Source: an uncultured Candidatus Saccharibacteria bacterium
GTDB taxonomy: Bacteria; Patescibacteriota; Doudnabacteria; UBA920
Assembly (NCBI GenBank): GCA_964631145.1
Contig: CAZVXT010000003.1
Span: forward strand, 2,750 to 66,749
DNA length: 64,000 bases
Direction: 5' to 3'
The translations under genes and the position numbers were made by a program. Positions 2,700 through 53,755 of the stretch are shown one piece after another. A model generated the notes under the pieces. That model was not told the DNA's origin and searched no databases. It worked only from the letters and a program-made list of their open reading frames with translations. Numbering within the stretch: the stretch's first letter is position 1; the number at the start of each line of letters is the position of its first letter.

Positions 2700-4244
2700 A
2701 TGTTATTAATTTATATTGCTATTGGATTAGCGGTTGGCGCTCTAATTGGATATTTTGGTCGCCAAACATTGATTTCCAAAAAAGTAGCTGGTGCAGAAAG
2801 AAATGCAGAGCGAATTTTGGAAGATGCAAAAAATAAAGAGAAAGAAGTTTTAATCGAAGCTAAAGCTAGAGCTTTAGAAATAACCGAATCTGCTAAAAAA
2901 GCAGAAGCGGATTTCCGGGCGCAAATTGTACGCTTTGAAGAGCGTATTGATCGCCGTGAAAAAGATTTGGACGTAAAAACTTCTCAGTTAGAGAAGCGAA
3001 ATAGTGAAGTCGAGCAAGAAAAGAAGGATTTACAAATTGCTCGAGACGAAGTTAAAGAGCTTAGAGCTAAGCAATTAGAAAACTTGCAAAAAATTGCTGC
3101 TATGACAAAGGAAGAAGCGGCAAAAGTTTTGTTAGATAATACAGAAAAGCAAATTAAAGAAGAAATGCTTGGATTGCACCGTAAGTTAATTGCGGAGGCT
3201 CATGAGACAGCAGACAAAGAAGCTCGCAAAATAGTTGCTCAAGCCATCGAACGCGTGGCAACTGAAGTTACTGCAGAAAGCACAACAACTACTGTTGATA
3301 TTCCTAACGAAGAAATGAAGGGTCGTATTATCGGAAAAGAAGGGCGTAATATTAGAACCTTTGAGCAGTTAATGGGTGTTGAAATTTTAATTGATGATAG
3401 TCCAGACTCTGTAGTTGTTTCTGGGTTTAATTCTATAAGACGTTACATTGCAAAGTTAACATTAGAAAAACTTTTACAAGATGGACGTATTCATCCTGCT
3501 CGCATTGAAGAAGGGTATGAAAAAAGCAAAGCTGAAGTTAACGAGCAAATTAAACGCGCTGGTGAAGATGCAGTTTACGAACTTGGTATTACATCATTTC
3601 CTCCAAAGCTTGTGCATCTGGTTGGGCGTTTAAAGTTTAGAACTTCATATGGACAAAACATTTTGCTTCACTCTGTAGAAATGGCAAAGATTGCATCTTT
3701 AATTGCAGAACAGCTTGGCGCTGATCAGCAGATAGTTAAGCAAGGTGCGCTTCTTCACGATATTGGTAAAGCGCTTGATCAAGATATGGAAGGAACTCAT
3801 GTGGAAATTGGTCGTCGTATTGCCGAGAAGTTTGGATTAGATGAAAAAGTTATTGAAGCTATCGAATCTCATCACCACGACACTGATGTGGCTGAGCATT
3901 CTACTCATCGTCAGCCATTATCTGTAGAGGCTATGATTGTAGATGCTGCGGATGGTATTTCTGGTTCTCGTCCTGGAGCTCGTAAAGACAGCTTTGAAAA
4001 TTATGTAAAGCGCTTAACAGATCTCGAAACTATTGCCAATTCCTTTGAAGGCGTAGAAAAGACTTATGCAATTCAGGGTGGTAGAGAACTTCGAGTTTTC
4101 GTAACTCCAACTGTGCTTGATGATTATGCTTGTCAAAAACTTGCTCGTAGTATTGCTAATCGTTTGCAGAATGAGCTTAAATTTCCTGGTGAAATTAGAG
4201 TTCAGGTAATTCGCGACTTTAGAGTAATCGAGTACGCAAGATAA
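2700..4244 (+). CDS. rny: Ribonuclease Y.
   Basis: N-terminal TM helix, coiled coil, KH domain (GRIIGKEGRNIR) and HD domain (LLHDIGK); 514 aa. Confidence 0.9.
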   Translation: MLLIYIAIGLAVGALIGYFGRQTLISKKVAGAERNAERILEDAKNKEKEVLIEAKARALEITESAKKAEADFRAQIVRFEERIDRREKDLDVKTSQLEKRNSEVEQEKKDLQIARDEVKELRAKQLENLQKIAAMTKEEAAKVLLDNTEKQIKEEMLGLHRKLIAEAHETADKEARKIVAQAIERVATEVTAESTTTTVDIPNEEMKGRIIGKEGRNIRTFEQLMGVEILIDDSPDSVVVSGFNSIRRYIAKLTLEKLLQDGRIHPARIEEGYEKSKAEVNEQIKRAGEDAVYELGITSFPPKLVHLVGRLKFRTSYGQNILLHSVEMAKIASLIAEQLGADQQIVKQGALLHDIGKALDQDMEGTHVEIGRRIAEKFGLDEKVIEAIESHHHDTDVAEHSTHRQPLSVEAMIVDAADGISGSRPGARKDSFENYVKRLTDLETIANSFEGVEKTYAIQGGRELRVFVTPTVLDDYACQKLARSIANRLQNELKFPGEIRVQVIRDFRVIEYAR

Positions 4245-4262
4245 AATTATATTAACTTTAAT

Positions 4263-4300
4263 AAACTTTGGTGTTAAATTTAATACCAAAGTTTTTTTTA
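4263..4300 (+). terminator. rny terminator.
   Basis: aactttggtgttaaatttaataccaaagtt followed by T8. Confidence 0.7.
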
Positions 4301-4319
4301 TTTTTTAAGGAGGAAAAAA

Positions 4320-5104
4320 ATGGCAAGACGAAAAAGCATCATTGTTGTTCTAGTATCACAGAGCAAGATTATTATGATCAAGCTCAAAAGCAATTATTAA
4401 AACATCACCCATTTTCTGACAAGGTTGTCAGTGCAATTATTAGCACATTAGAGCTTGGAGATTTTTGTGGTTGTAAACTGCTAGCAATTGGACAAGTAGT
4501 TGATTCTAAGTTTTTTTGGCAATATGTTTTGAACACTGGAAAGTTGTCCATCGATCAAGTTAGAGAAATAGCAGAAAGGCATTATTTAAGTTGGAAGTGT
4601 TTGTTAAGAATGACGGCAAAGGCAAAAGAAAAAAATCCTAAAGCCAATGGTATTTTTAAGATGCCATATAAAAAAGAAGACTTTGAACTAGTGTTAGCTA
4701 GGGGTGGTGACGAAGAAGTTTTGGCTTTAGGTATTCAATCCGGGTTGTATAAGCAGGAAGATATTATTAGTTTATTACAAGAAAATAACTATGGATTGGG
4801 TTGCGACTGTGTGCAAATCGCCATTATTGAAAGTAAGATAATGCCTTTGGTTGGCATATGGTTGCTTGATCGATATTCGGGTGATTATGCTTTGGGGGTG
4901 ATAAATCTGTATTTAGATATAGATCGTCCTAAAGGTGAGGATTTGGAAGATTATTTAGAATCTGCGGTAGAATTATTTCCTCATTATTCAGCAGCGATTT
5001 ATACTAAAGCTTTGCAAATCCCAAATAATCAATTATCAGATAGTTTTCTTGCTCAGTTGGTTAGAAATGGTGCACTCAATGTATCTGTTCCAGCAAGTGC
5101 TTAG
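4320..5104 (+). CDS. Hypothetical protein with an apparent frameshift near its start.
   Basis: A strong AAGGAGG ribosome-binding site sits 7 nt before ATG 4320, but that frame stops after 27 codons. The long ORF continues in the -1 frame from about 4331 across the run gAAAAAg. The ORF-track TTG start at 4268 lies inside the rny terminator hairpin. Confidence 0.4.
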
Positions 5105-5111
5105 CATTTTT

Positions 5112-5140
5112 GAAGCGTATATTGTACGCTTCTTTTTATT
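5112..5140 (+). terminator. Rho-independent terminator.
   Basis: gaagcgta-tattg-tacgcttc followed by a T-run. Confidence 0.6.
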
Positions 5141-5540
5141 TTGTGTAATTGTTATAATTGGTATTAGCAAGAAGTGCTTTTTAGTTTTAAAATTTATTTA
5201 TTGTAGAGCAACATAGTAAAGTTCATAAACCATCAGTTGTTGATTACTATTAATTATATTTATAGTTTTTGCTAGTTGGATAGGATTATTTTTTCTTCCT
5301 TTAGAAAACTGGCAATACGATGGTGTGATATTATACGCTGTTCCTTTATTTTGAGGCTTGGTATTTTATTTATTTGGAAGATATAAAGGGTGGGATAAGC
5401 CTTTGCATTCTTTATTGAAATATTTTTTGATATTGTTTATGTTAGCAGTCTCAATATGTATTATGCTTATTATATTTACTATTTTCTTTGCTATTTTGGG
5501 ATTATTTCACACTTCTTCTTACGGAGGTTTTATATAAAAT

Positions 5541-6351
5541 TATGACTAAAATATTGATAATCGGGGATATCATGGGTAAGCCAGGACGACTAGGTTTGCA
5601 AAAGATTATCCCAGAACTAAAAACTGAATACTCTCCAGATGTAATGCTGGCAAATGTAGAAAATTTAACTCACGGCAAAGGTATAATTGAAAAGCATATT
5701 ATAGAATTAAATAATTTGGGATTTGATGCTTATACTTCCGGTAATCACGTTTTTGATAGCGGTCCGCATGCAGAAGATTGCTTTGATAAATTTCCGCAAA
5801 TTATTCGCCCTGCTAATTATACCGGAATCAATAAACATCTTCCTGGATCTGGCTATTACCGTTTTGCCAAAAATGGACAGCAATTTTTGGTGATAAATCT
5901 GTCTGGACAGGTATTTATGAATGGTAAAGATAAATTTGAAATCACTAATGCATTTTTTGAATTTGATAAAATCTATCAAGATCAAGCCAGTAAAGATGAT
6001 ATAATTATTGTAGATTTGCATGCGGAGGCAACTAGCGAAAAACAAGCTCTTGCTTGGTATATTGATGGGCGCGCTCATGTTTTGTATGGTACTCATACCC
6101 ATGTTCCAACTAACGATGCAAAGATTTTGCCTAAGGGCTTGGCTACTCAAACTGATGTAGGGATGACAGGCGATCGAGATTCTGTGATAGGTGTGATTCC
6201 GGACAGTGCTTTAGTTTTATATTTACAAAACGCAAAACCAAAATTAGATATTGTAGAAGCCGGAATCGCAGTGGTTAATGCATTATATGTAGAAATAGAA
6301 AACGGACGTGCGACCAACACGAAAATTATACAAAAAGAAATAGAAGTTTAA
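5541..6351 (+). CDS. ymdB: YmdB-family metallophosphoesterase (2',3'-cyclic-nucleotide phosphodiesterase-like).
   Basis: MTKILIIGDIMGKPGR N-terminus and metallophosphatase motifs. The ORF-track start at 5488 is an N-terminal over-extension. Confidence 0.75.
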
Positions 6352-17695: not shown

Positions 17696-19156
<1,461 letters not shown>

Positions 19157-19167
<11 letters not shown>

Positions 19168-19343
19168 TAAGGAATATTTCGCTTCTTGTTCGTTTTTCGA
19201 AACAGCAAGTGCGACAATAAAGCTAGTTTGTTTTAAACAAACAGCTCCGTTGGTCGTCGTTAATTTTTCCGAAAATTAGCGCATCTTTCAAAAGACTTGT
19301 AGTCGGTTCATTTCAGTCACTATGTAGTTGTGAAAAAATAAAA
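19157..19343 (+). repeat. Direct repeat copy 1 (attL-like); includes the last 12 nt of 16S plus 175 nt of trailer.
   Basis: Appears identical by hand alignment to 24074..24260. Confidence 0.8.
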
Positions 19344-19377
19344 GAACCTTTTTTCTAAAGCTAGAAGAAAGGTTTTT

Positions 19378-20343
19378 ATGTTTTTGGAAAATACCATAGA
19401 AACAAATACCAATGACGGAATTAAGCTTAACTCTGCTGGTGTCAAGTTAAGTGAATTACTTTCAGAGTTTCTGCAATATGCTCAGTACGAACTAATTTTT
19501 TCTACTCAAACACTTGCTAAATACAAGGAGTCGTTAGAATGGGTAATTCGGGACATTGGTGATATTGCCATAAATGAGTTAGATAGCAGTCATATTATAT
19601 TATTGAAGCAGAAAATTATGAACCGCGGTGCAGGAGAGTCTCGCGTTGCCTCAGTAGTTTTTGCTTTAAAAAGTTATTTAAAATTTATCAAAGAGTTTAA
19701 GCATTTAAAGGTTATGGACTATAAGAATATAAAGTCACCTAAGCGTAGTAGACGAGAGGTTATATTTTTAACTAATGAAGAAGTTCAGCAATTTATAGAT
19801 GCAATTAAAATTGACAACAAGTGTCGTAGAGGAAATAATAAGCAGCTTATAAATATGGATGGGTTAAGGTTTAGGGTCTTAGTCGAAGTTTTGCTAGGGA
19901 CAGGCATGCGCATCTCTGAAGCATTGAGTTTAAATGTTAGTAGTATAAACTTTGAAACATCTGAAGCGAAAATTATTGGTAAAGGTAATAAAGAGAGGGC
20001 TGTGTTTTTTAGCACCCGATGCTTAAAGTGGGTTAATTATTATTTAGAACAACGCTCGGATAATGAAGAGGCTTTATTTGTCACTAACCGTGGCACTCGT
20101 TTAAAGCGCGCAGATGTTAGTGGTTTCTTCCAGCGATATTCTAAGAAGGTTAACCTGTTAAAGAGAGTTACACCTCATATTTTACGTCACACCACTGCAA
20201 CCAACCTTTTGTTTAATGGTTGCCCTATTGTACATGTAAAAGAAATATTAGGTCATAATAGGCTAGAAACCACTTGTCGTTATTACTTAGGTGTAGATAA
20301 AAGAAGGGCAAAAGAAGCTCATGAGGCTTATTTAAGGTACTAA
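19378..20343 (+). CDS. Tyrosine recombinase / phage-type integrase.
   Basis: Box I TGMRISEAL; box II HILRHTTAT; catalytic LGHNRLETTCRYY tyrosine. Confidence 0.85.
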   Translation: MFLENTIETNTNDGIKLNSAGVKLSELLSEFLQYAQYELIFSTQTLAKYKESLEWVIRDIGDIAINELDSSHIILLKQKIMNRGAGESRVASVVFALKSYLKFIKEFKHLKVMDYKNIKSPKRSRREVIFLTNEEVQQFIDAIKIDNKCRRGNNKQLINMDGLRFRVLVEVLLGTGMRISEALSLNVSSINFETSEAKIIGKGNKERAVFFSTRCLKWVNYYLEQRSDNEEALFVTNRGTRLKRADVSGFFQRYSKKVNLLKRVTPHILRHTTATNLLFNGCPIVHVKEILGHNRLETTCRYYLGVDKRRAKEAHEAYLRY

Positions 20344-20533
20344 TAGTAATTTATTTAGCTTGAAATTGAATTTATTTGTACTATTTCACGACGTTTTTGC
20401 AATAAAAATAATATTATTTTGAAATAAATATCAGCGCGGGGGGGTAGGACGCGGGGTTTGGTCATTATTCTTCTTAAACATACTTTTAGTGCGCTAAGTT
20501 TTATTATTCAGAGCTGTATTGACAGGTGTACGT

Positions 20534-20562
20534 TTGACCAACCAAAATAATTTTGCTATAAT
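20534..20562 (+). promoter_or_regulatory. Sigma70-like promoter for the cargo genes.
   Basis: TTGACC, 17-nt spacer, TATAAT. Confidence 0.5.
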
Positions 20563-20612
20563 ACCTTCAAAGATACTTTCCGAAATTCATTGGAGTGAAA
20601 TTCATAAAATAA

Positions 20613-21224
20613 ATGACCATACAAACCAAAAAAATTAACACAAAATTAGTAAGAAATAATATCGACACACCTTTAGAAGTTTCTAGAAGTCTTTTTACTA
20701 CTGCGTTAGAAGAAAAATTATCAACTAGTTTTGGTTTGGCTAATTCAGATACCGTTGGTTTACCTCTGGGGAAGCATTTAATAACAGGTAGTACTTCCAT
20801 AGCGAGTTTAAACTCTAATTTAACTGGAGCTGTTGCTTTTCCAATTGATAGAGCGCCAGTATTATTTCCAGAAAGTATTGTAACTGAGTCTATTGTCACT
20901 GCTCCTGCATATTCATTTACTGATGATATGTTAGTAGTTATGTATGAGTCAATTGTTTCTCAGCAGTCTAATATTCTTTCTGGTACTTTGTGGGATGCAG
21001 AGGCTTTAAGCACAACTAAGCTTAAACTTGTAGAAGACGTTAACCTTTACTATAGTTTTAATTATGAAGGCTTAACATGGAAAGACTTCTTACCTCGCAT
21101 CACCCGGTTTGTAAAAGATGTCGTTAGAAATTTTAAAAAATTATTTGAGGTTGCAGTTTATTGGTTAAGCCATTTAGCAAAAATTTTCTTTGTTCAAAGC
21201 AAACCCACTGTATTATTGGCTTGA
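20613..21224 (+). CDS. Hypothetical protein (island cargo).
   Basis: 203-aa ORF downstream of a consensus promoter; no motif. Confidence 0.45.
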   Translation: MTIQTKKINTKLVRNNIDTPLEVSRSLFTTALEEKLSTSFGLANSDTVGLPLGKHLITGSTSIASLNSNLTGAVAFPIDRAPVLFPESIVTESIVTAPAYSFTDDMLVVMYESIVSQQSNILSGTLWDAEALSTTKLKLVEDVNLYYSFNYEGLTWKDFLPRITRFVKDVVRNFKKLFEVAVYWLSHLAKIFFVQSKPTVLLA

Positions 21225-21302
21225 TACGGAAATAAACACACCAATTAGTTGTATTTTTATGGTGTGTTTTTGTTTTGTATTAAATTATTAAATTTTAAAC
21301 CA

Positions 21303-21581
21303 ATGTCATTACATGTTACTTGTGTTAATAAACCAGACCGTTATAGTGAGCATGAACATATAACCCATATAGGTGGTTCTGGATGGCGAAAAACTCGAGA
21401 AGCTGTTGTCTATGAGATAAACAATAATATAAATTCTTATTACACTAAAGACCCATATACTGGACAAGTCGCTTGGGTTGGTGTAGTTAACCCCTCATAT
21501 GGAGACCCATATCTTCGAACTTATGCTGATGGAGACTGGAACGATAACTTGCTATCTCTTAATGAGTGTACCCTGTATTAA
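21303..21581 (+). CDS. Small conserved-looking protein, possibly DUF3892-like (recalled from memory, unverified).
   Basis: HEHITHIGGSGW ... REAVVYEI ... YLRTYADG ... DNLLSL pattern. Start trimmed to MSLHV. Confidence 0.4.
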   Translation: MSLHVTCVNKPDRYSEHEHITHIGGSGWRKTREAVVYEINNNINSYYTKDPYTGQVAWVGVVNPSYGDPYLRTYADGDWNDNLLSLNECTLY

Positions 21582-21644
21582 GGGTTTTATGGAATTGGCG
21601 CCCTATGTTTAAATGGGGCGCCTTCCCTATTAATTCAAACACTA

Positions 21645-22844
21645 ATGACTGATGTAAAAATTAACCCAAATACTCTTTGCGTTTGTGGTAGTGAAAAAAA
21701 ATTTAAGTATTGTTGTAGATATAAATATGCTGCAACTAATTTTCGAGTTCCCCAAGTACCAGTAGAAGTAGTGCAGTATTTTGCCAAAAAGAACCAAGAG
21801 CTCGAAACAATGAAAGCAATGGGAATACATATAAACTATGTTCGCCCTATTGTGCATCAAGGTGGAAAAATGTGGGTATTGGGTGACTGTGTATACAAGG
21901 GTCAGATAGGTGAGACCTTCCATGAATTTATCATTGGTGTTTTAGGTAGTACTTTGGGTAATGAATGGCTGCAGGCTCAGTTTGCTTTGCCAGAAAGCGA
22001 AAGACATTATATTGCTACTAGCTTTATAAAGTTTGAAGAGTGGAAGGCGAAAAATATATCAGTAACAGAAATAGTTATTAATGGACGAGCACATGCTACA
22101 TCTGATGGATGGACTAAAACTTTACTTGCTTTAGCTTTTGATATTGCTAGCTTGCAGCATACATTGCAATTGCCCAATAGTTTATTAGAGCGCCTTAAAG
22201 GCAAAGACTCTTACCAGGGGGCTCGTTATGAAATTGCAATTGCTGCAATTTTTGCAAGACTGGGTTGTAAAATTGAGTTCTTGGATGATGCTTTTCCTGC
22301 TCATTTAAAACACTGTGAATTTATTGCTACTCACAATGAAACTGGGGTTAAGGTTGCTGTGGAAGCGAAAAGTCGCCATAGGGAAGGCGTGCTGAATACA
22401 GCTGGAGAACAAGACGCAGAAAAAATTGTTAAGGGGGATGTTCGCAAGCTTGTAAAAAATGCTATGAAGCAAAACCCGAATGATGTACCGTTCATGGTTT
22501 TTGTGGATGTAAATGTTCCCATAGATGGTGCAGAGACATCCTTTGACAAAAAGTGGGTGCAAGACGTAATGAGTTTTATGACTAAACAAATTTGTTCACA
22601 AGAAGACCCGTCACCACATAATGGAGTCTTCTTCACTAACTATTCATTTCATTACCAAAATGAAGATGATGCAGTGAATGGTGAGAATTTAAGTGTAGTC
22701 CCTCAATTCTCAAGGTTTCCGTTACCTAACCCCGAGTTTTCTAGTATGCTATCGGCTGCACTTAGATATTATGGTAACATTCCGAATTTAGATGTCGATG
22801 ACGACTTAGATGAGAATGGTCGCTTGCGAAGTAGTCCTAACTAG
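21645..22844 (+). CDS. SEC-C-motif protein with a putative PD-(D/E)xK nuclease-like core.
   Basis: N-terminal CVCGSEKKFKYCC (SEC-C zinc motif). Central FLDD ... VAVEAKSRH resembles a D ... ExK signature. Confidence 0.45.
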   Translation: MTDVKINPNTLCVCGSEKKFKYCCRYKYAATNFRVPQVPVEVVQYFAKKNQELETMKAMGIHINYVRPIVHQGGKMWVLGDCVYKGQIGETFHEFIIGVLGSTLGNEWLQAQFALPESERHYIATSFIKFEEWKAKNISVTEIVINGRAHATSDGWTKTLLALAFDIASLQHTLQLPNSLLERLKGKDSYQGARYEIAIAAIFARLGCKIEFLDDAFPAHLKHCEFIATHNETGVKVAVEAKSRHREGVLNTAGEQDAEKIVKGDVRKLVKNAMKQNPNDVPFMVFVDVNVPIDGAETSFDKKWVQDVMSFMTKQICSQEDPSPHNGVFFTNYSFHYQNEDDAVNGENLSVVPQFSRFPLPNPEFSSMLSAALRYYGNIPNLDVDDDLDENGRLRSSPN

Positions 22845-23030
22845 ATGCTATAATATTATTACAATTTAATTGCCTAAACCCACTGTGCAAGCATGGGCAT
22901 GGCAGTAAAACCTAAAGTATATAGAACCCTCGTCCAAGGGCTTACTTTAGGTAATACAGGGAAACTTGTATTGGTGTCGTAAGACATCTCTTGGCGGGGG
23001 CTTTGTGTTTTCCGTCAAAGAAAGGAAAAA

Positions 23031-23261
23031 ATGTTTAATAAAATAACTATGTCCTTAATAGCTGTCTCAGCCTTACTCTTTAGCATTAGCTATGCTTTTG
23101 GACAGTATGTGGAAGCCAAAGACCATAACTTAGCTGTATTAAAGCCGTTATTGGACTTATGTTTCAGTGCTGAAGGCTTGACTACTGAAACTGTTCAGCA
23201 GTGTACAGAATTAAATAAAAAACAATTTATTTTTAAGTACCCTGTTTTACCTCATAAATAA
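23031..23261 (+). CDS. Small secreted protein.
   Basis: Signal-peptide-like N-terminus; 76 aa. Confidence 0.35.
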   Translation: MFNKITMSLIAVSALLFSISYAFGQYVEAKDHNLAVLKPLLDLCFSAEGLTTETVQQCTELNKKQFIFKYPVLPHK

Positions 23262-23339
23262 GCTACTTATTTTACCTAAAATTGTAAATATAAAGTGAGT
23301 AGTTTTTAAATTAACTGATATAATATAGATAACTGAATA

Positions 23340-23380
23340 ACCGACATACACCCCACTTTGGGGGTATTGTCGGTTTTTTA
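23340..23380 (+). terminator. Rho-independent terminator.
   Basis: ccgaca ... ccccactttggggg ... tgtcgg followed by T6. Confidence 0.55.
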
Positions 23381-23397
23381 ATTAAATAGGCTAGTAT

Positions 23398-23480
23398 TTG
23401 CAAGAAGAGTTCACTGATAACTGGATAGAGCCATAAGCTTGCAAAACTATCCAGCTATCAGTGAATTTTTATTTGTTTTG
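23398..23480 (+). other. Nested inverted repeats (19-bp arms) forming a large hairpin followed by a T-run.
   Basis: ttcactgataactggatag pairs with ctatccagctatcagtgaa; ttgcaag pairs with cttgcaa. Confidence 0.5.
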
Positions 23481-23822
23481 CTTTGCCCTATTAGTTTATC
23501 CGTAGCTAACAGGGCAGGGGTAAAGTAAGTAATACTTCGTCTCCCTCCAGTCTCTACAAGACAGCTTACGGACGTAAAAAGAGTAAGTGGCACGTGTGCC
23601 AGATAACGAAAACCTCATAATTGGCAAATTTTACGTATAAACATTGTATTTAGTGATAACTTCCAGCTGGGAGTGTGGCAGAGAAAGGCTGTAATTCCTT
23701 TCCCACCTATAGTAAGTAGTATAAATAATGAATAATGTATTGGTGTATATGTCTATTAGGAAGTGGCTTGTGGGTGGTGGGGGTTATGTATACTTATATA
23801 CTTATTATTAATATGTAGAAAA

Positions 23823-23990
23823 ATGAAAAACAAAAACTACAAGAAAACCCGGTTTAAGAAACTTATCCGTATTGCTCCAAAACAGTTAGAGTATGTGCGT
23901 GATATTAGAGCAGGTTATACATTAGCTGGTAGGCTAGATGAAATAATAAACTTTTACCGCAAGTATAAGAAAAATTCTCCTACTTCTTGA
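23823..23990 (+). CDS. Small basic protein, possibly a ribbon-helix-helix DNA-binding protein.
   Basis: KKTRFKKLIRIAPKQLEYVRDIRAGYTLAGRLDEII fits a beta-strand, helix, helix pattern. Internal start chosen. Confidence 0.3.
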   Translation: MKNKNYKKTRFKKLIRIAPKQLEYVRDIRAGYTLAGRLDEIINFYRKYKKNSPTS

Positions 23991-24073
23991 GAAAAACAGC
24001 ATTTTTGATATAATAAAGGAAATTAATGCTAGCATAAGAAACTAGCTTTTATTTCTTTCAACAAATAGTGAAC

Positions 24074-24260
24074 ACCTCCTTTCTAAGGAATATTTCGCTT
24101 CTTGTTCGTTTTTCGAAACAGCAAGTGCGACAATAAAGCTAGTTTGTTTTAAACAAACAGCTCCGTTGGTCGTCGTTAATTTTTCCGAAAATTAGCGCAT
24201 CTTTCAAAAGACTTGTAGTCGGTTCATTTCAGTCACTATGTAGTTGTGAAAAAATAAAAT
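24074..24260 (+). repeat. Direct repeat copy 2 (attR-like).
   Basis: Appears identical to 19157..19343. Confidence 0.8.
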
Positions 24261-24261
24261 T

Positions 24262-24286
24262 CACCCATTAGGGTGTTTTTTTGTTG
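24262..24286 (+). terminator. Rho-independent terminator.
   Basis: cacccattagggtg followed by T7. Confidence 0.6.
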
Positions 24287-27945: not shown

Positions 27946-28022
27946 TTTTTTATTCTGGTGGGCGTGCCAGGAATTGAACCTGGGACCTCGTCATTATCAG
28001 TGACGCGCTCTAACCAACTGAG
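27946..28022 (-). tRNA. tRNA-Ile(GAT) with encoded CCA.
   Basis: Minus-strand cloverleaf with anticodon loop CTGATAA and T-arm GGTTCAATTCC. Confidence 0.85.
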
Positions 28023-28081
28023 CTACACGCCCAAATTAGATACTTGGGTATTTTAGCAATAATATCAAAAAAAATCAACGG

Positions 28082-28405
28082 CTAATTTTGTGGCATTGCT
28101 ATACTGGCAGTTCCAAAATCAAGCACTCCTCCCATCCATAAAACTGCTAAAATCATAAAAGCCAATCCCAATAGCTTGTAAAAAGTATAAGTACCTCCAA
28201 AGGTAGGGGTTATATACTGTTCAGCAAAATCTAATTTACCACTTTGGTATGTTATCCATACTGAGTATTTCATCAATAAAAAGCCAATAACAATTAGAAT
28301 AGGTCCTAATATAAATCTCATACTATATATTATATCATTTGATTTTAAAATATTTTTGATTTTGAAACAGTTTACTAGCATTTTCGATATACATAGTATA
28401 AGCAT
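28082..28405 (-). CDS. Small membrane protein.
   Basis: Three hydrophobic helices. Confidence 0.4.
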   Translation of the reverse strand: MLILCISKMLVNCFKIKNILKSNDIIYSMRFILGPILIVIGFLLMKYSVWITYQSGKLDFAEQYITPTFGGTYTFYKLLGLAFMILAVLWMGGVLDFGTASIAMPQN

Positions 28406-28428
28406 TAATATAATAAGGAGCTAAAATT

Positions 28429-28611
28429 ATGGCAAAATATGGAAAAGCTGCTCAAAATAAAATTGAAAAAGTAATGCATGAATTTAAGAAAGGTGATTTA
28501 AAAAGTGGTCGTAGTGGTAAGACGGTAAAAAATCCTAAGCAGGCAGTGGCTATTGGTATTTCTGAAGCTAAAGAAATGGGTGCTAAAGTACCAAAGAAGA
28601 AAAAACAATAA
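28429..28611 (+). CDS. Small lysine-rich conserved protein.
   Basis: 60 aa; KQAVAIGISEAKEMG motif; Shine-Dalgarno AAGGAG upstream. Confidence 0.5.
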   Translation: MAKYGKAAQNKIEKVMHEFKKGDLKSGRSGKTVKNPKQAVAIGISEAKEMGAKVPKKKKQ

Positions 28612-28627
28612 ATACAATTTATAATAA

Positions 28628-28655
28628 AAAACCCGCCTAATGGCGGGTTTTTTTA
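28628..28655. terminator. Terminator.
   Basis: aacccgcc-taat-ggcgggtt followed by T7. Confidence 0.7.
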
Positions 28656-28731
28656 TGGTGGACCCCAGCGGACTCGAACCGCTCACCTCCTCGGTGCAAA
28701 CGAGGCGCTCTACCAGATGAGCTAGGGGCCC
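28656..28731 (-). tRNA. tRNA-Ala(TGC) with G3:U70 and encoded CCA.
   Basis: Minus-strand cloverleaf with anticodon loop TTTGCAC and G3:U70 in the acceptor stem. Confidence 0.85.
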
Positions 28732-49098: not shown

Positions 49099-50242
49099 TT
49101 TACGTTTAAACATTGACAACTTCGCAACAAATATGTCAAAAAACTATTTATTTTTAAATAACATGCGGCTCGTATAACTAGCTTATTTAAGTTGTATCGA
49201 GAACCGCTAATCTGCGGTTTTTTTGTTGCCAAGTCACATTAACAATTTGCCTCTATATATTTACTGCTCTCAGGTTGCTCAGCCATTCCATTATAACCTA
49301 GGGAAACAGGCCAGATGTCACACCGATATTAAGAGCAGTAGCTATATGGCGGTAAAGCAATAGCTTTATAGCCAAGTACATTAAAAACTAAATAGTGGTA
49401 ATTTATTCTCGCATTCAACCGGCGAGAATAAGTACTGTAAGTTTAATCTAAAAAGAACAAGACAAACATTGATCTTACTTATTTAAAGTAAGTTTAAAGA
49501 AAACCCAAAGCAGTTTGTTCATCATGTAAATGGTGTTTACAAATTGCTTGTCAAAATATCTGTGTAATCAAATTTGTTTACAAATTTGTGATTAAAACAG
49601 AGAAGGGTATATGGTGGATGCCTTGGTATTATGAGCCGATGAAGGACGCAGTTGCCGGCGATACGCTTCGGGTAGGTGGCAAACAACCTTTGATCCGAAG
49701 ATTTCCGAATGGGGAAACCCATGCATTTGAAGAATGCATGCCTTTGTGCCGTGGGGTACATTGAGCGGGAACCATGCGAAGTGAAACATCTCAGTAGCAT
49801 GAGGAAAAGAAAGAAAGTTGTCGTTAGACAATTCGATTCCCTTAGTAGTGGCGAGCGAAAGGGGAGCAATATAAATATTTATTGACTGCTTATTTACAAT
49901 TCATTTTTATGAAAAGTAAGATATGCAAGTAGTCAATAAATATTTATTAGCCCAAACTTAATTTGTGTTGTTTTCTGGACTAGTTTACTAGAAAGGAAAA
50001 CTTAAAGCTTACTGGCGTTGCAAGTTAAGCGTAATAAGAGAGGACATTGTAGAGCAGTAACTCTACAGAGGAATTTAAGTGTGCTATGTAGCAGAACAAG
50101 CCTGGAAAGGCAGACCAAAGAGGGTGATAGTCCCGTATAGCGAAACATCATACCGTTCCTGATCTTTATCTTGAGTACGTCCAGACACGAGAAATCTGGA
50201 CTGAAGTAACGTAGACTAATACGTAAGGCTAAATACTCATAA

Positions 50243-50283
<41 letters not shown>

Positions 50284-50915
50284 CACCCCGGAAGGGGAAT
50301 GAAATAGTCTCTGAAACCATATACTTACAAGGAGTGGAAGACCTAGGGCTCGCAAGAGATTCCAGGTTAACCGCGTGCCTATTGAAGAATGATCCAACGA
50401 GTTAGTTATATGCGGCTTAACTAAGTGTTATCAAACACGAAGTTGTAGTGAAAGCGAGGATTAATAGTCCGTATTAAGTTATATTCAGTTTTCGGCTTTT
50501 GCTGGATACTGAATATAATCTTAAATGTCGCATGTGCTAGACCCGAAACCCGAGTGAGCTACCCATGGCCAGGATGAACGTTGTGTAAAAGCAACGGGAG
50601 GTCCGAACCCACTAATGTTGCAAAATTAGGGGATGAGCTGTGGGTCGAAGAGAAATTCTAATCGAACCGGGTGATAGCTGGTTCTCCTCGAAATAACTTT
50701 AGGGTTAGCGTCACATGTTCTCTCCAGAGGTAGAGCACTGAATCGATCTCCGGTGCGCAAGCGTCGGATTCGAACCAAACTCCGAATTCTGAGAGATAAA
50801 TAGTGTGGCAGTTAGTCTATCGGCTCTAAGGTCGATCAGACGAATGGAGAAGAATCCACACCGCCGTTTAAGGTCCCCAAATCCTAGCTATAGTGCAAAG
50901 GATGTGGGATTGCTC

Positions 50916-50952
<37 letters not shown>

Positions 50953-51674
50953 TAAAGAAAGCGTAACAGCTCACTGGTCAAGCGATCCTGCGCCGACAAT
51001 ATATAGGGGCTAAGCTAGGTACCGAAGACGCGGGTTGCATAGTAATTTATTATTATGCAGCGGTAGAGGAGTGTTGTGTACAGGCTGAAGCCGGACTCGT
51101 AAGAGCCGGTGGACAGTACACAAGTAAGAATGTTGGAATAAGTAATATATATAGGGGTGAGAATCCCCTTCGCCGAATATCCAAGGTTTCCTGGGCAACG
51201 ATCGTCGTCCCAGGGTTAGTCGATCCTAAGAGCCGGCCTCAAGAGGTCGGTCCGATGGAAAACAGGGTTGATATTCCCTGACCAACTATGCGTTATCCAA
51301 GGCGGGACGCATCATGGTAGTTTGAGCGTACTGTGAGTATGTACGTCGTTGTATCCGTAGGGAGAAACTCTAGGTAAATCCGGAGTTTCAAAGTTAGCTG
51401 GCTTTCGCAAGAAAGTTAGCTAGTTGTAATCTCGAAGATATGAAGAAAGTTCGCAAGGACAATTCGAATGAACCAAGGTGCCAAGAAAAGCGTCGTGGTT
51501 ACGCGTGTAGCTGTCCGTACCGCAAACCGACACAGGTGGATGAGGAGAGAATCCTAAGGCGTCCGGATCAATGTTCGTTAAGGAACTCGGCAATACAGCA
51601 GGTGTACCTTCGGTATATACCTCGCCTGTTTGCATGCTGGGTAATAGATTTTTATATCAAAAAAAGTTTTGTAC

Positions 51675-51745
51675 GGAGTGGTAGCTTAGTGGTAAAGCGC
51701 TAGCTTTCAACTTAGAATACGAAGGTTCGAATCCTTCCTACTCCG
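51675..51745 (+). tRNA. tRNA-like element 1. It has a Glu-type CTTTCAA loop but a mispaired anticodon stem.
   Basis: Acceptor ggagtgg pairs with ctactcc (one G-U); D-arm gctt-agtggta-aagc; T-arm gaagg-TTCGAAT-ccttc. Only two to three of five anticodon-stem pairs form. Confidence 0.45.
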
Positions 51746-51895
51746 TCAAAATCATATGGGGTACAACTTATAAAAAACTTTTCAAGTTTTTAAGCTTATG
51801 GCACTTAAATGTCTGTTCGTCAGATAGTTTTCAAAATTATTTTGAAGACAAGTGTTAATTCACGCATTTAAGCAAGTAAGTATCCCGCCAATTTC

Positions 51896-51968
51896 GCGGC
51901 AATAGCTCAGCTGGAAGAGCGCTTAGCGTTCCGCTAAGAGGTCGTAGGTTCAAGTCCTACTTTCCGCT
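51896..51968 (+). tRNA. tRNA-like element 2. Ala-like body; anticodon loop CGTTCCG has G at position 33 and C at position 37.
   Basis: TAGCTCAGCTGGAAGAGCG D-arm; stem cttag pairs with ctaag; T-arm gtagg-TTCAAGT-cctac; acceptor has one C-U mismatch. Confidence 0.45.
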
Positions 51969-52037
51969 TTGGAAACATACTGGTTGTTTAAAAAGTTTGA
52001 CCGACTTGCATAATGAACAATTTGTTTCCATTCAATT

Positions 52038-52110
52038 CGGGTTGTAGCTCAACCAGGTAGAGTATTAGCCTTGGTGGCTAAAGTTATAGGTTCAAATCCT
52101 ATCAACCCGA
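52038..52110 (+). tRNA. tRNA-like element 3. Anticodon loop CTTGGTG (TGG, Pro-like) with U at position 37.
   Basis: Perfect acceptor stem cgggttg/caacccg; anticodon stem ttagc/gctaa; T-arm atagg-TTCAAAT-cctat. Confidence 0.5.
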
Positions 52111-52114
52111 TTTT

Positions 52115-52188
52115 TCCGCGGTATATCAATTGGTAGATTGTGCGATACGTACATCGCAAGGTTCTAGGTTCGATTCCTAGTCGCGGAG
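52115..52188 (+). tRNA. tRNA-like element 4 with an 8-nt anticodon loop (TACGTACA).
   Basis: Acceptor tccgcgg pairs with tcgcgga (one G-U); T-arm ctagg-TTCGATT-cctag; anticodon stem tgcga pairs with tcgca. Confidence 0.45.
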
Positions 52189-53095
52189 TTGAAGAGGTTA
52201 ATAAACCGTTAAATTAAATTTTGGCGAATTTCAAAAATTTAGCTTCTTCATTCAATTAAAAAATGATGTAAAACTATTCTCGATTGTATTTTAATCGAGT
52301 CTATTACCCAGCATGTTAAACAGGCCGCAGCGAAAGACCTCTCCCGACTGTTTATCAAAAACTTAGGTCCGTGCTAAAGCGCAAGCTGATGTATACGGGC
52401 TGATGCCTGGCCAGTGTCAGAAGGTCAAACCCCTTGGGGCAACCTCGGGGGCCAAGCCCTGATGAACGCCGGCGGTAACTATAACCGTCCTATGGTAGCG
52501 AAATTCCTTGTCGCGTAAGTTGCGACCCGCACGAATGGCATAACGAGTAGAGGACTGTCTTAACGAACACTCCGATGAACTTACAGTGGCGGTAAAGATG
52601 CCGTCTACCCGCAGCAAGACGGAAAGACCCTATGAAGCTTTACTATAGCGTGCTATTGAAATAATGTTTTCATTGTTTAGTATAGGTGGGAGACTTTGAT
52701 GCTAACGCGCCAGCGTTAGCGGAGTCGAAATGTGAAATACCACCCTGTGAATGTGTTGTTTCTAACTAACTCTTAACCTAAGTTAGGACAGTGGCTCGTG
52801 GGTAGTTTAACTGGGGCGGTTGCCTCCTAAATGGTAACGGAGGCGTTTATTAAGGTAGGCTAGGCGCGGATGGAAATCGCGCTGGTAGTGCAAACGCATA
52901 AGCCTGCTTGACTGCAAGAGTGGCGACTCGCGCAGGTGGGAAACCAGAAGTTAGTGATCCGATGCGTTCGAGTGGAAGACGCAAAGCCCAACGGATAAAA
53001 GTTACTCTAGGGATAACAGGCTGATCTTCTCCAAGAGTCCATATCGACGAGAAGGTTTGGCACCTCGATGTCGGCTCATCACGTCCTGGGGGTGA

Positions 53096-53132
<37 letters not shown>

Positions 53133-53631
53133 TGGTACGCGAGCTGGGTTCAAAACGTCGTGAGACAGTTTGGTCCTTATCTGCTGTGGGTGTACGAAAT
53201 TTGAGTGGTCACATCTCTAGTACGAGAGGACCGAGATGTATCGACCTCTGGTGTACCCGTTGTTCCTTCAGGAGCACGGCGGGGTAGCTAGGTCGAGTTT
53301 AGATAAGCGCTGAAAGCATATAAGCGCGAAGCTGTCCACAAGACTAGATTTCGTTGAGACTTCGGTCTCGAAAGGTTCGCAGGAGACTACTGCGTATTTC
53401 AATCAAAATAATTTTTTTGAAGGGCTTGCCTGGATAAAAAATTGTAGCGATTTTATAGGTTGCAGGTGTAAGGATAGTAATATCTTCAGCCGAGCAATAC
53501 TAATCAACCGAAAGTTTTAATCTTTATTACACTTTTGACAAGCAATTTGTGAATTGTTTATAGTACTTTTTAATTATCACTATCAGTTTTTAATAAATGC
53601 CCTCGGGCTTAAATCTTTATAGATAGAGATT

Positions 53632-53748
53632 TGGGCTGGGTGGCATTTACGGTGTGGTCCGACCTGATCCCATCTCGAACTCAGAAGTCAAACGCGCTCG
53701 TGCCGATGATAGTCTGGTGCATGCCAGTGCAAAAGTAGGTAGCTGCCC
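53632..53748 (+). rRNA. rrf: 5S ribosomal RNA.
   Basis: ...GGTGTGGTCCGACCTGATCCCATCTCGAACTCAGAAGTCAAACG ... GTAGGTAGCTGCCC. Confidence 0.88.
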
Positions 53749-53755
53749 TTATAAC

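Follow-up and report, generated by a model that had tools for sequence, protein, structure and literature searches.

Rugutis is a single-gene anti-phage system of lactococci, consisting of a 359-residue protein (pUCCL633_059) whose N-terminus bears a SEC-C motif (Grafakou et al. 2024, PMC11381338). It is known to block phages in an abortive-infection-like manner, and its trigger has been reported to be phage c2's large terminase (Mosterd et al. 2025, PMC12184496). In the current study, a 64,000-nucleotide (nt) stretch of contig CAZVXT010000003.1 from an uncultured Candidatus Saccharibacteria bacterium, hereafter the window, was analysed with respect to a trio of genes within positions 20534-22844, the last of which encodes a 399-residue SEC-C protein that is probably of the Rugutis kind, Rugutis being the closest described system, to which it is likened by its architecture. 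The explanation that best accommodates the data, and to which a probability of approximately 0.6 is assigned, is that the 399-residue protein represents a stand-alone, single-gene defence nuclease carried on a mini-element that targets the 16S ribosomal RNA (rRNA) gene; its nuclease activity, its defence role, its trigger and the role of its SEC-C motif are what we infer. The trio and its associated signals are arranged as follows:

20534..20562, + strand: promoter-like site TTGACC, 17 nt, TATAAT with a TG extension (TGcTATAAT); a consensus match only, 11 of 12 positions
20613..21224, + strand: 203-residue ORFan, from the list of open reading frames (ORFs)
21303..21581, + strand: 92-residue stand-alone DUF3892 protein, counted from its ATG (the mechanical ORF begins at TTG 21249)
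21597..21622, + strand: G+C-rich hairpin separating the DUF3892 gene from the SEC-C gene (GGCGCCC, 12-nt loop, GGGCGCC, no T-run after it), read from the sequence
21645..22844, + strand: 399-residue SEC-C protein, from the ORF list

These three ORFs, which lie on the same strand and are separated by gaps of 78 and 63 nt, were found where the original prediction had placed them, and the motifs that it had read from them, i.e., HITHIGG, YLRTYADG, DNLLSL, CVCGSEKKFKYCC, FLDD and VAVEAKSRH, are all present in the translations.

The likeness between Rugutis and the 399-residue protein encompasses a single-gene organization, a SEC-C motif within the first ~20 residues (residues 9-24 of 399 in the protein described here), a location on mobile DNA, and length, Rugutis being 359 residues long as compared to 399 for the current protein and 350-400 for its family. 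Both proteins have a confident predicted structure, that of Rugutis being without a close relative in the PDB, while the host phyla differ, i.e., Bacillota for Rugutis and Patescibacteria for the protein under study. The earlier statement that none of the three proteins matches a system that can be named is to be qualified with regard to Rugutis, for which the same N-terminal SEC-C architecture has been described (PMC11381338).

The SEC-C motif of the 399-residue protein was corroborated by a match to PF02810 (23.4 bits versus a cut-off of 20.4) at residues 9-24, in which the zinc ligands C12, C14, C23 and C24 are all present, and the same family was matched in 36 of 37 relatives. This zinc knuckle is followed by a conserved domain spanning residues ~30-188 and by a PD-(D/E)xK core at residues ~190-340. 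SEC-C is a zinc-binding interaction module in SecA, YecA and YchJ, which possess the same C-x-C-x8-C-C/H knuckle, although in these proteins the motif is C-terminal and the remainder of the sequence is unrelated, whereas it is N-terminal in the 399-residue protein and missing from many of its relatives. The motif is an accessory module, because many of the relatives start at approximately profile position 65 and consequently do without it.

More than 900 full-length matches, 40-50% identical, were assigned to the family of the 399-residue protein, most members of which are 350-400 residues long, and, with clustering at 50% identity, 882 clusters were recovered by an exhaustive profile search (E <= 1e-30). 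In a set of 185,579 species genomes, 38 loci were shown to harbour a relative, the majority of these in Patescibacteria, with a small number in Actinomycetes, Solirubrobacterales, Blastocatellia and others, while eight plasmids of rhizobia and Caballeronia also carry one. A phage origin of the gene was rejected, as no relative was present in 50,697 phage records and only two, both distant, were identified among the 2.9 million viral contigs of IMG/VR. Where relatives are longer, the fusion partners are confined to SEC-C, plus a single HicA/HicB case. The latter (P0347, 456 residues) exhibits HicB-like and HicA toxin-antitoxin domains ahead of the core domain, an arrangement that is due either to genuine fusion or to reading through from one neighbouring gene into the next.

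An AlphaFold model of the 399-residue protein, built with a 37-sequence alignment, was obtained with a predicted local distance difference test (pLDDT) score of 86.9 and a predicted template modelling (pTM) score of 0.85. The model resembles PD-(D/E)xK nucleases, in line with the restriction-endonuclease-like fold that had been suspected from the sequence, and Foldseek matched it best to HindIII, FokI and Hjc. Residues 190-288 adopt the order helix, three strands, helix, strand that characterizes the PD-(D/E)xK core, and this core carries the acidic residues and the (D/E)-x-K motif on strands 2 and 3. Specifically, E196 is located in helix 1, E225-F226 at the start of strand 2, E240-x-K242-S243 on strand 3 and D288-x-N290 on strand 4. 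E196, E225, E240 and K242 are invariant in the 37 sequences, and all of the residues listed are retained in relatives of just 24-28% identity that are located on a viral contig, on a plasmid and in a genome of Blastocatellia. Since the residues persist at such a level of divergence, VAVEAKSRH constitutes a true E-x-K (E240 and K242), in agreement with the D...ExK signature that had been proposed; the first half of that signature was not substantiated, as the FLDD aspartates vary across the alignment. The predicted structure thus gives the 399-residue protein a restriction-endonuclease fold with a conserved acidic/lysine site. For residues ~30-188, by contrast, the model revealed no recognizable structural relative, nor does this domain resemble any known DNA-binding or modified-base-binding fold.

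The core fold is common to a range of PD-(D/E)xK nucleases, including Mrr, type IV enzymes, CdiA-CT toxins, HamA (Hachiman), SduA (Shedu), NucC and Cap4, members of which are often found in defence islands and share the helix-1 glutamate, the strand-2 acidic residue and the strand-3 E-x-K with the 399-residue protein. The latter differs from these nucleases in that it does not belong to any named family by sequence profile, in that its strand-2 acidic residue is Glu rather than Asp, and in that those families show no counterpart of its N-terminal 190 residues, which comprise SEC-C and the domain of unknown fold. Furthermore, there is no partner helicase, cyclase or immunity gene beside its own gene.

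As regards the genomic surroundings of the family, 43 loci with relatives of the 399-residue protein (approximately 40 of them distinct) were fetched and searched within ~8 kb by tblastn for the DUF3892 and 203-residue proteins, and 132 flanking ORFs from 39 loci were surveyed. Among these 132 ORFs no conserved neighbour of the relatives was observed; the 399-residue gene is a single-gene unit, a result that shows how it is organized, not what it does. The commonest neighbours were found to be DNA methylases of types I, II and III (approximately eight) and large serine recombinases (four), followed by ApeA-HEPN, an IS200 transposase and LexA with two each. For example, the relative in locus L017 is the last gene of a type I hsdR-hsdM-hsdS operon, that in L001 faces a type III system, and that in L013 is flanked by a cytosine-5 methylase and an integrase, while on Caballeronia plasmid p2 a relative has an integrase on one side and a type I system on the other. 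In four loci a transfer RNA (tRNA) gene is situated no more than 320 nt from the relative. In L004 the relative is located amid a diversity-generating retroelement, a resolvase, an integrase and a primase-polymerase. Of note, L004 and L005 (~3000-5700) represent one Patescibacteria-like genome, in which the retroelement, consisting of a reverse transcriptase and bAvd, adjoins the SEC-C nuclease relative. These restriction-modification, recombinase and methylase neighbours render the defence role that was originally suggested plausible.

Under the defence-nuclease explanation, the 399-residue protein would function as a single-protein, metal-dependent nuclease with a putative active site formed by E196, E225, E240 and K242. 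Its N-terminal domain (residues 30-188) would be responsible for sensing and autoinhibition, keeping the nuclease inactive until an invader is sensed, at which point the activated nuclease would cut nucleic acid, either that of the invader or the cell's own, the latter resulting in abortive infection. The SEC-C knuckle may act as a docking module in this scheme.

A number of results weigh against this explanation. When the 399-residue protein and an Agrobacterium relative were compared to PLSDB by tblastn, no Lactococcus plasmid was matched, and no component of PADLOC-DB v2 was matched by the 399-residue protein outside its 20-residue SEC-C motif, the matches being limited to ~27 residues in which the SEC-C motif aligns to the E2 and E1-E2 models (E about 1e-4). 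The association with defence genes is an enrichment and not a rule, the majority of the 39 loci having ordinary or unannotated neighbours. Moreover, the 399-residue protein did not match Mrr_cat (PF04471), for which four of the 37 relatives gave matches at E >= 0.022, and hhalign against E. coli Mrr returned a probability of 1.6% over 26 columns.

The comparisons to Mrr also bear on an alternative in which the 399-residue protein is a solitary, constitutively active restriction enzyme akin to Mrr or the type IV enzymes, which cuts foreign DNA bearing particular modifications, rather than a triggered abortive-infection nuclease. This alternative is considered unlikely. In its favour, relatives are repeatedly located beside type I, II or III restriction-modification genes, as is mrr beside hsdRMS in E. 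coli, the weak Mrr_cat matches in four of 37 relatives point in the same direction, and hhalign aligns the YEIAIAAIFARLG helix of the family with the FEVIVLDVLHRLG helix of Mrr. On the other hand, the Mrr_cat matches are below threshold and the hhalign result for E. coli Mrr is not significant. The N-terminal domain is furthermore unlike known DNA-binding or modified-base-binding folds, and Rugutis, the only characterized protein of similar architecture, is abortive-infection-like and triggered by a phage protein (PMC12184496).

The second component of the defence-nuclease explanation, i.e., the mini-element on which the gene is proposed to reside, is defined by the following features:

17699-19166: 16S rRNA gene
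19154..19343, no strand: left repeat copy (attL-like), from repeat search and pairwise alignment
19378..20343, + strand: tyrosine recombinase/integrase, Xer-like, immediately inside the left repeat (Pfam Phage_integrase, E 1.5e-38; phrog_1 integrase)
22846..22854, + strand: putative extended -10-like element TGcTATAAT, 17 nt upstream of LOOT, read from the sequence
22871..22988, + strand: LOOT RNA (Rfam RF03000), 80.2 bits versus a gathering score of 46.4, full-length (model positions 1-121)
23031..23261, + strand: 76-residue ORF with a hydrophobic N-terminus, 42 nt past LOOT, from the ORF list
23763..23990, + strand: 75-residue ORF with a weak coding signal (codon score 0.005-0.095)
24070..24259, no strand: right repeat copy (attR-like), from repeat search and pairwise alignment
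24262-24275: terminator-like hairpin, right after the right repeat copy

A repeat search followed by pairwise alignment identified a direct repeat of 190 nt (19154-19343 and 24070-24259) with 99% identity between the copies, which is perfect over 188 nt (19156-19343 and 24072-24259). The perfect repeat opens at CACCTCCTTTCT, and its first 11 nt (CACCTCCTTTC) correspond to the last 11 nt of 16S rRNA, i.e., the anti-Shine-Dalgarno end; beyond the 16S end (19166) the repeat continues through ~177 nt of downstream spacer. Because the anti-Shine-Dalgarno end is where the 188-nt repeat starts, the attachment site of the element is taken to be the 3' end of the 16S rRNA gene, into the extreme tip of which the element would have recombined. 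With it the element brings a replacement for the final 11 nt of 16S together with ~177 nt of spacer, and the rRNA gene therefore remains intact. Including one copy of the repeat, the element extends from 19344 to 24259 (4916 bp) and contains the tyrosine integrase, the trio (the 203-residue, DUF3892 and 399-residue proteins), the LOOT RNA, the 76-residue ORF and the doubtful 75-residue ORF.

The integrase scores below every NCBIfam Xer equivalog cut-off (185 versus 220 bits for XerA, 181 versus 335 for XerC and 168 versus 330 for XerD), and by these cut-offs it is not a chromosomal XerC/XerD dimer-resolution recombinase. The combination by which an integrative element is recognized, namely an integrase gene plus direct repeats on both sides where a stable-RNA gene ends, is present, and the trio region (20534-22844) is cargo of an integrase-linked island bounded by the 188-nt repeat. 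This organization is akin to that of islands that target tRNA or transfer-messenger RNA (tmRNA) genes, with which the element shares an integrase beside an RNA gene, flanking direct repeats, a replacement 3' end and defence-type cargo, and even the order of components, i.e., RNA gene, repeat, integrase, cargo, repeat, is that of islands in tRNA genes. It differs from them with respect to its target, the 3' end of 16S rRNA, the length (188 nt) and perfection of its repeat, its very small size (4.9 kb) and the presence of a LOOT RNA.

The location of the gene on such an element also brings into consideration an alternative whereby the nuclease serves the mobile element itself, through homing, recombination, the exclusion of competitors or as an addiction toxin, and does not provide phage defence to the host. 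Relatives do occur nearly always in mobile contexts (integrases, serine recombinases, IS200, tRNA genes), and one of them is fused or adjacent to HicA/HicB toxin-antitoxin domains. Such a role is nevertheless improbable: no conserved antitoxin candidate was found, and relatives are very rare on viral contigs (two distant examples in 2.9 million) and missing from the 50,697 phage records. Furthermore, as the tyrosine and serine recombinases found with the family are unrelated to one another and there is no fixed partner, the 399-residue gene is not part of the machinery of any one element.

In the original prediction, the trio had been put forward as a candidate defence or addiction module. A co-transcribed module of interdependent parts, be it a sensor, an adaptor and a nuclease or a toxin and its antitoxin, would be compatible with the common strand, the gaps of 78 and 63 nt and the one good promoter-like site upstream, and two of the three families are indeed found in defence neighbourhoods. 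When the 43 loci with SEC-C relatives were searched by tblastn, however, no homologue of the DUF3892 or 203-residue protein was detected, and conversely no SEC-C relative is encoded beside four close relatives of the DUF3892 protein. The 203-residue protein is moreover an ORFan, a G+C-rich hairpin intervenes between the DUF3892 and SEC-C genes, and a conserved adjacent partner gene, by which a toxin-antitoxin or addiction system would be recognized, was observed neither in the loci of SEC-C relatives nor in those of DUF3892 relatives. The reading of the trio as one module, to which very little probability is given, is thus largely refuted by the missing co-occurrence. Under the defence-nuclease explanation, the three genes would instead be independent passengers, of which the 399-residue gene would be the functional centre.

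Among 5.8 billion proteins, the 203-residue protein was found to match only itself, and it is without a family match in Pfam, NCBIfam, PADLOC and PHROGs, in agreement with the earlier observation that it displays no recognizable motif. The codon usage of its ORF is nonetheless coding-like, with an in-frame score of 0.30 as compared to 0.345 +/- 0.09 for the long genes of the window. The earlier assignment of the 92-residue protein to DUF3892 proved to be accurate: the protein matches PF13031 at profile positions 1-70 of 71 (E 9.4e-18; 64.9 bits versus a cut-off of 22.3), and phrog_8224 provides additional support. Neither the 203-residue nor the DUF3892 protein was matched in PADLOC-DB v2.

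DUF3892 has been tied to defence operons under the control of CapH/CapP-like regulators (bioRxiv 10.1101/2022.04.27.489752), and it has been proposed to fold in the manner of double-stranded-RNA-binding domains or of ribosome hibernation factors, which would point to a sensor of RNA or ribosomes (bioRxiv 10.1101/2025.01.14.632903). The 92-residue protein is a clear member of these conflict-system proteins, with 116 homologues of approximately 94 residues at 50-60% identity. Its four close relatives adjoin LexA-like S24 peptidases, a helix-turn-helix (HTH) gene with DUF2188, and E1/ubiquitin-like systems, while type III restriction-modification genes, a serine recombinase and conjugation genes are also found in their vicinity. 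These contexts are in agreement with the published links to defence and with a role in conflict or mobile elements, although the usual partners are absent from the current window. The DUF3892 protein is probably a separate, small conflict-associated protein.

That the 399-residue protein is an ordinary housekeeping factor of Patescibacteria, involved in DNA repair or RNA processing and present in the island by chance, would fit a large family conserved at 40-50% identity across many Patescibacteria and the occurrence of SEC-C in the housekeeping proteins SecA, YecA and YchJ, yet it is highly improbable in view of just 38 loci in 185,579 species genomes, a patchy distribution across phyla, variable neighbourhoods rich in restriction-modification and recombinase genes and, in the window, the location of the gene inside a repeat-bounded insertion.

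The LOOT RNA starts 27 nt past the stop codon of the SEC-C gene, inside the element. LOOT was identified at three of approximately 41 SEC-C loci: in both the window and L017 it follows directly downstream of the SEC-C gene, and in L013 the distance is 2.3 kb. None was found at the other ~38; reciprocally, a SEC-C relative was near LOOT in none of 37 metagenome LOOT loci. On these counts (3/~41 and 0/37), LOOT was rejected as a functional partner of the SEC-C gene. It was also rejected as an attachment site, as L013 and L017 show no flanking repeats and as LOOT is located inside the repeats in the window, and as a normal neighbour of 16S, as no 16S 3' end is present near any LOOT locus.

A survey of 60 flanking ORFs from 20 metagenome LOOT loci (Pfam, E <= 1e-5) revealed that all of the Pfam families matched around this RNA (22/22) are of mobile-element or defence kinds. 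These include serine recombinases (four loci), cytosine-5 and N4/N6 methylases, Mrr_cat, ResIII, SNase, ParB, AAA_25 and a P22-type portal, and none of the 60 ORFs was found to represent a family of translation, biosynthesis or other core metabolism. In three of these neighbourhoods (L155, L100 and L046) a recombinase gene abuts tRNA-Glu or tmRNA, and LOOT is situated ~0.4-1.8 kb beyond the far end of that gene. The serine recombinase genes in question end over the tRNA-Glu or tmRNA gene (55-1717 in L155, 1666-3238 in L100 and 5674-7635 in L046), an overlap that is consistent with integration of the respective elements into tRNA-Glu or tmRNA genes. A co-oriented ORF begins within ~65 nt downstream of LOOT in 11 of approximately 15 loci that could be judged, the equivalent in the window being the 76-residue ORF at 42 nt. 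On the basis of its neighbourhoods and of this downstream ORF, LOOT therefore looks like an RNA that is carried by integrative elements, where it possibly acts as a leader for the downstream gene.

As regards the remainder of the element, the 76-residue ORF (23031..23261) has no family match, and the 75-residue ORF may not be a gene. Approximately 500 nt of the element (23262-23762) are without any ORF of at least 50 residues. Within this segment, a hairpin was noted at 23330-23384, and 23402-23428 and 23447-23473 form an inverted repeat of 27 nt whose arms are 85% complementary; no Rfam family was matched there. The terminator-like hairpin at 24262-24275 presumably belongs to the resident locus, in which it is followed by an M23-peptidase-like gene.

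The TTGACC-17-TATAAT promoter that had been reported ahead of the trio is present at 20534-20562; it is extended by a TG and precedes the 203-residue ORF by ~50 nt. Promoter-like sites of this type are not enriched in the region (25 versus 19.7 +/- 5.0 in shuffled sequence), which is A+T-rich; given this lack of enrichment, the site is plausible as a promoter by its position only and is not proven to be one. Three extended -10-like elements were noted within the element, two of which (20554-20562 and 22846-22854) read TGcTATAAT and precede the trio and LOOT, respectively, while the third, a TG-extended TATAAT (24006-24014), is located at the end of the 75-residue ORF and points into the right repeat.

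The window as a whole represents a low-G+C chromosome segment from a bacterium of Patescibacteria-like (candidate phyla radiation) type, the proteins of which have their nearest relatives in Patescibacteria, and in addition to the 16S rRNA gene it harbours a 5S rRNA gene and a LOOT RNA. Its rRNA genes (17699-19166 and 49590-53751) are unlinked, 16S and 23S being 30 kb apart. The tRNA-Ile(GAT) and tRNA-Ala(TGC) genes, whose usual place is the spacer between 16S and 23S, are found by themselves (27956-28731), ~9 kb downstream of the 16S gene and on the opposite strand. The 23S rRNA match extends over 3935 nt (49590-53524) for a model of 2925 nt and encompasses four tRNA or tRNA-like genes, especially at 51674-52189, namely Glu, Pro and two with odd anticodon loops, which is suggestive of either a large insertion or a 23S gene that is split and has tRNA genes inside.

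Going beyond the single protein, a broader proposal may be advanced tentatively, and with well under even odds: that the family forms a broad, Patescibacteria-centred counterpart of Rugutis, i.e., a one-protein abortive-infection nuclease that would sense a phage packaging protein, and that it rides on an undescribed class of very small integrative elements of candidate-phyla bacteria with a LOOT RNA, which would be able to use the 3' end of 16S as attachment site. If the family is related to Rugutis, the conserved site composed of E196, E225, E240 and K242 would offer a testable effector mechanism for that experimentally validated system, whose mechanism is currently unexplained. The element described here indicates that the end of a 16S rRNA gene can be used by mobile DNA in the way that islands use tRNA genes, regenerating the anti-Shine-Dalgarno sequence, and LOOT, hitherto an orphan RNA, is now placed on mobile elements. 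Patescibacteria possess tiny genomes and their phage defences are poorly charted; if the defence-nuclease explanation is true, this family of at least 880 clusters would be one of their commoner accessory defences.

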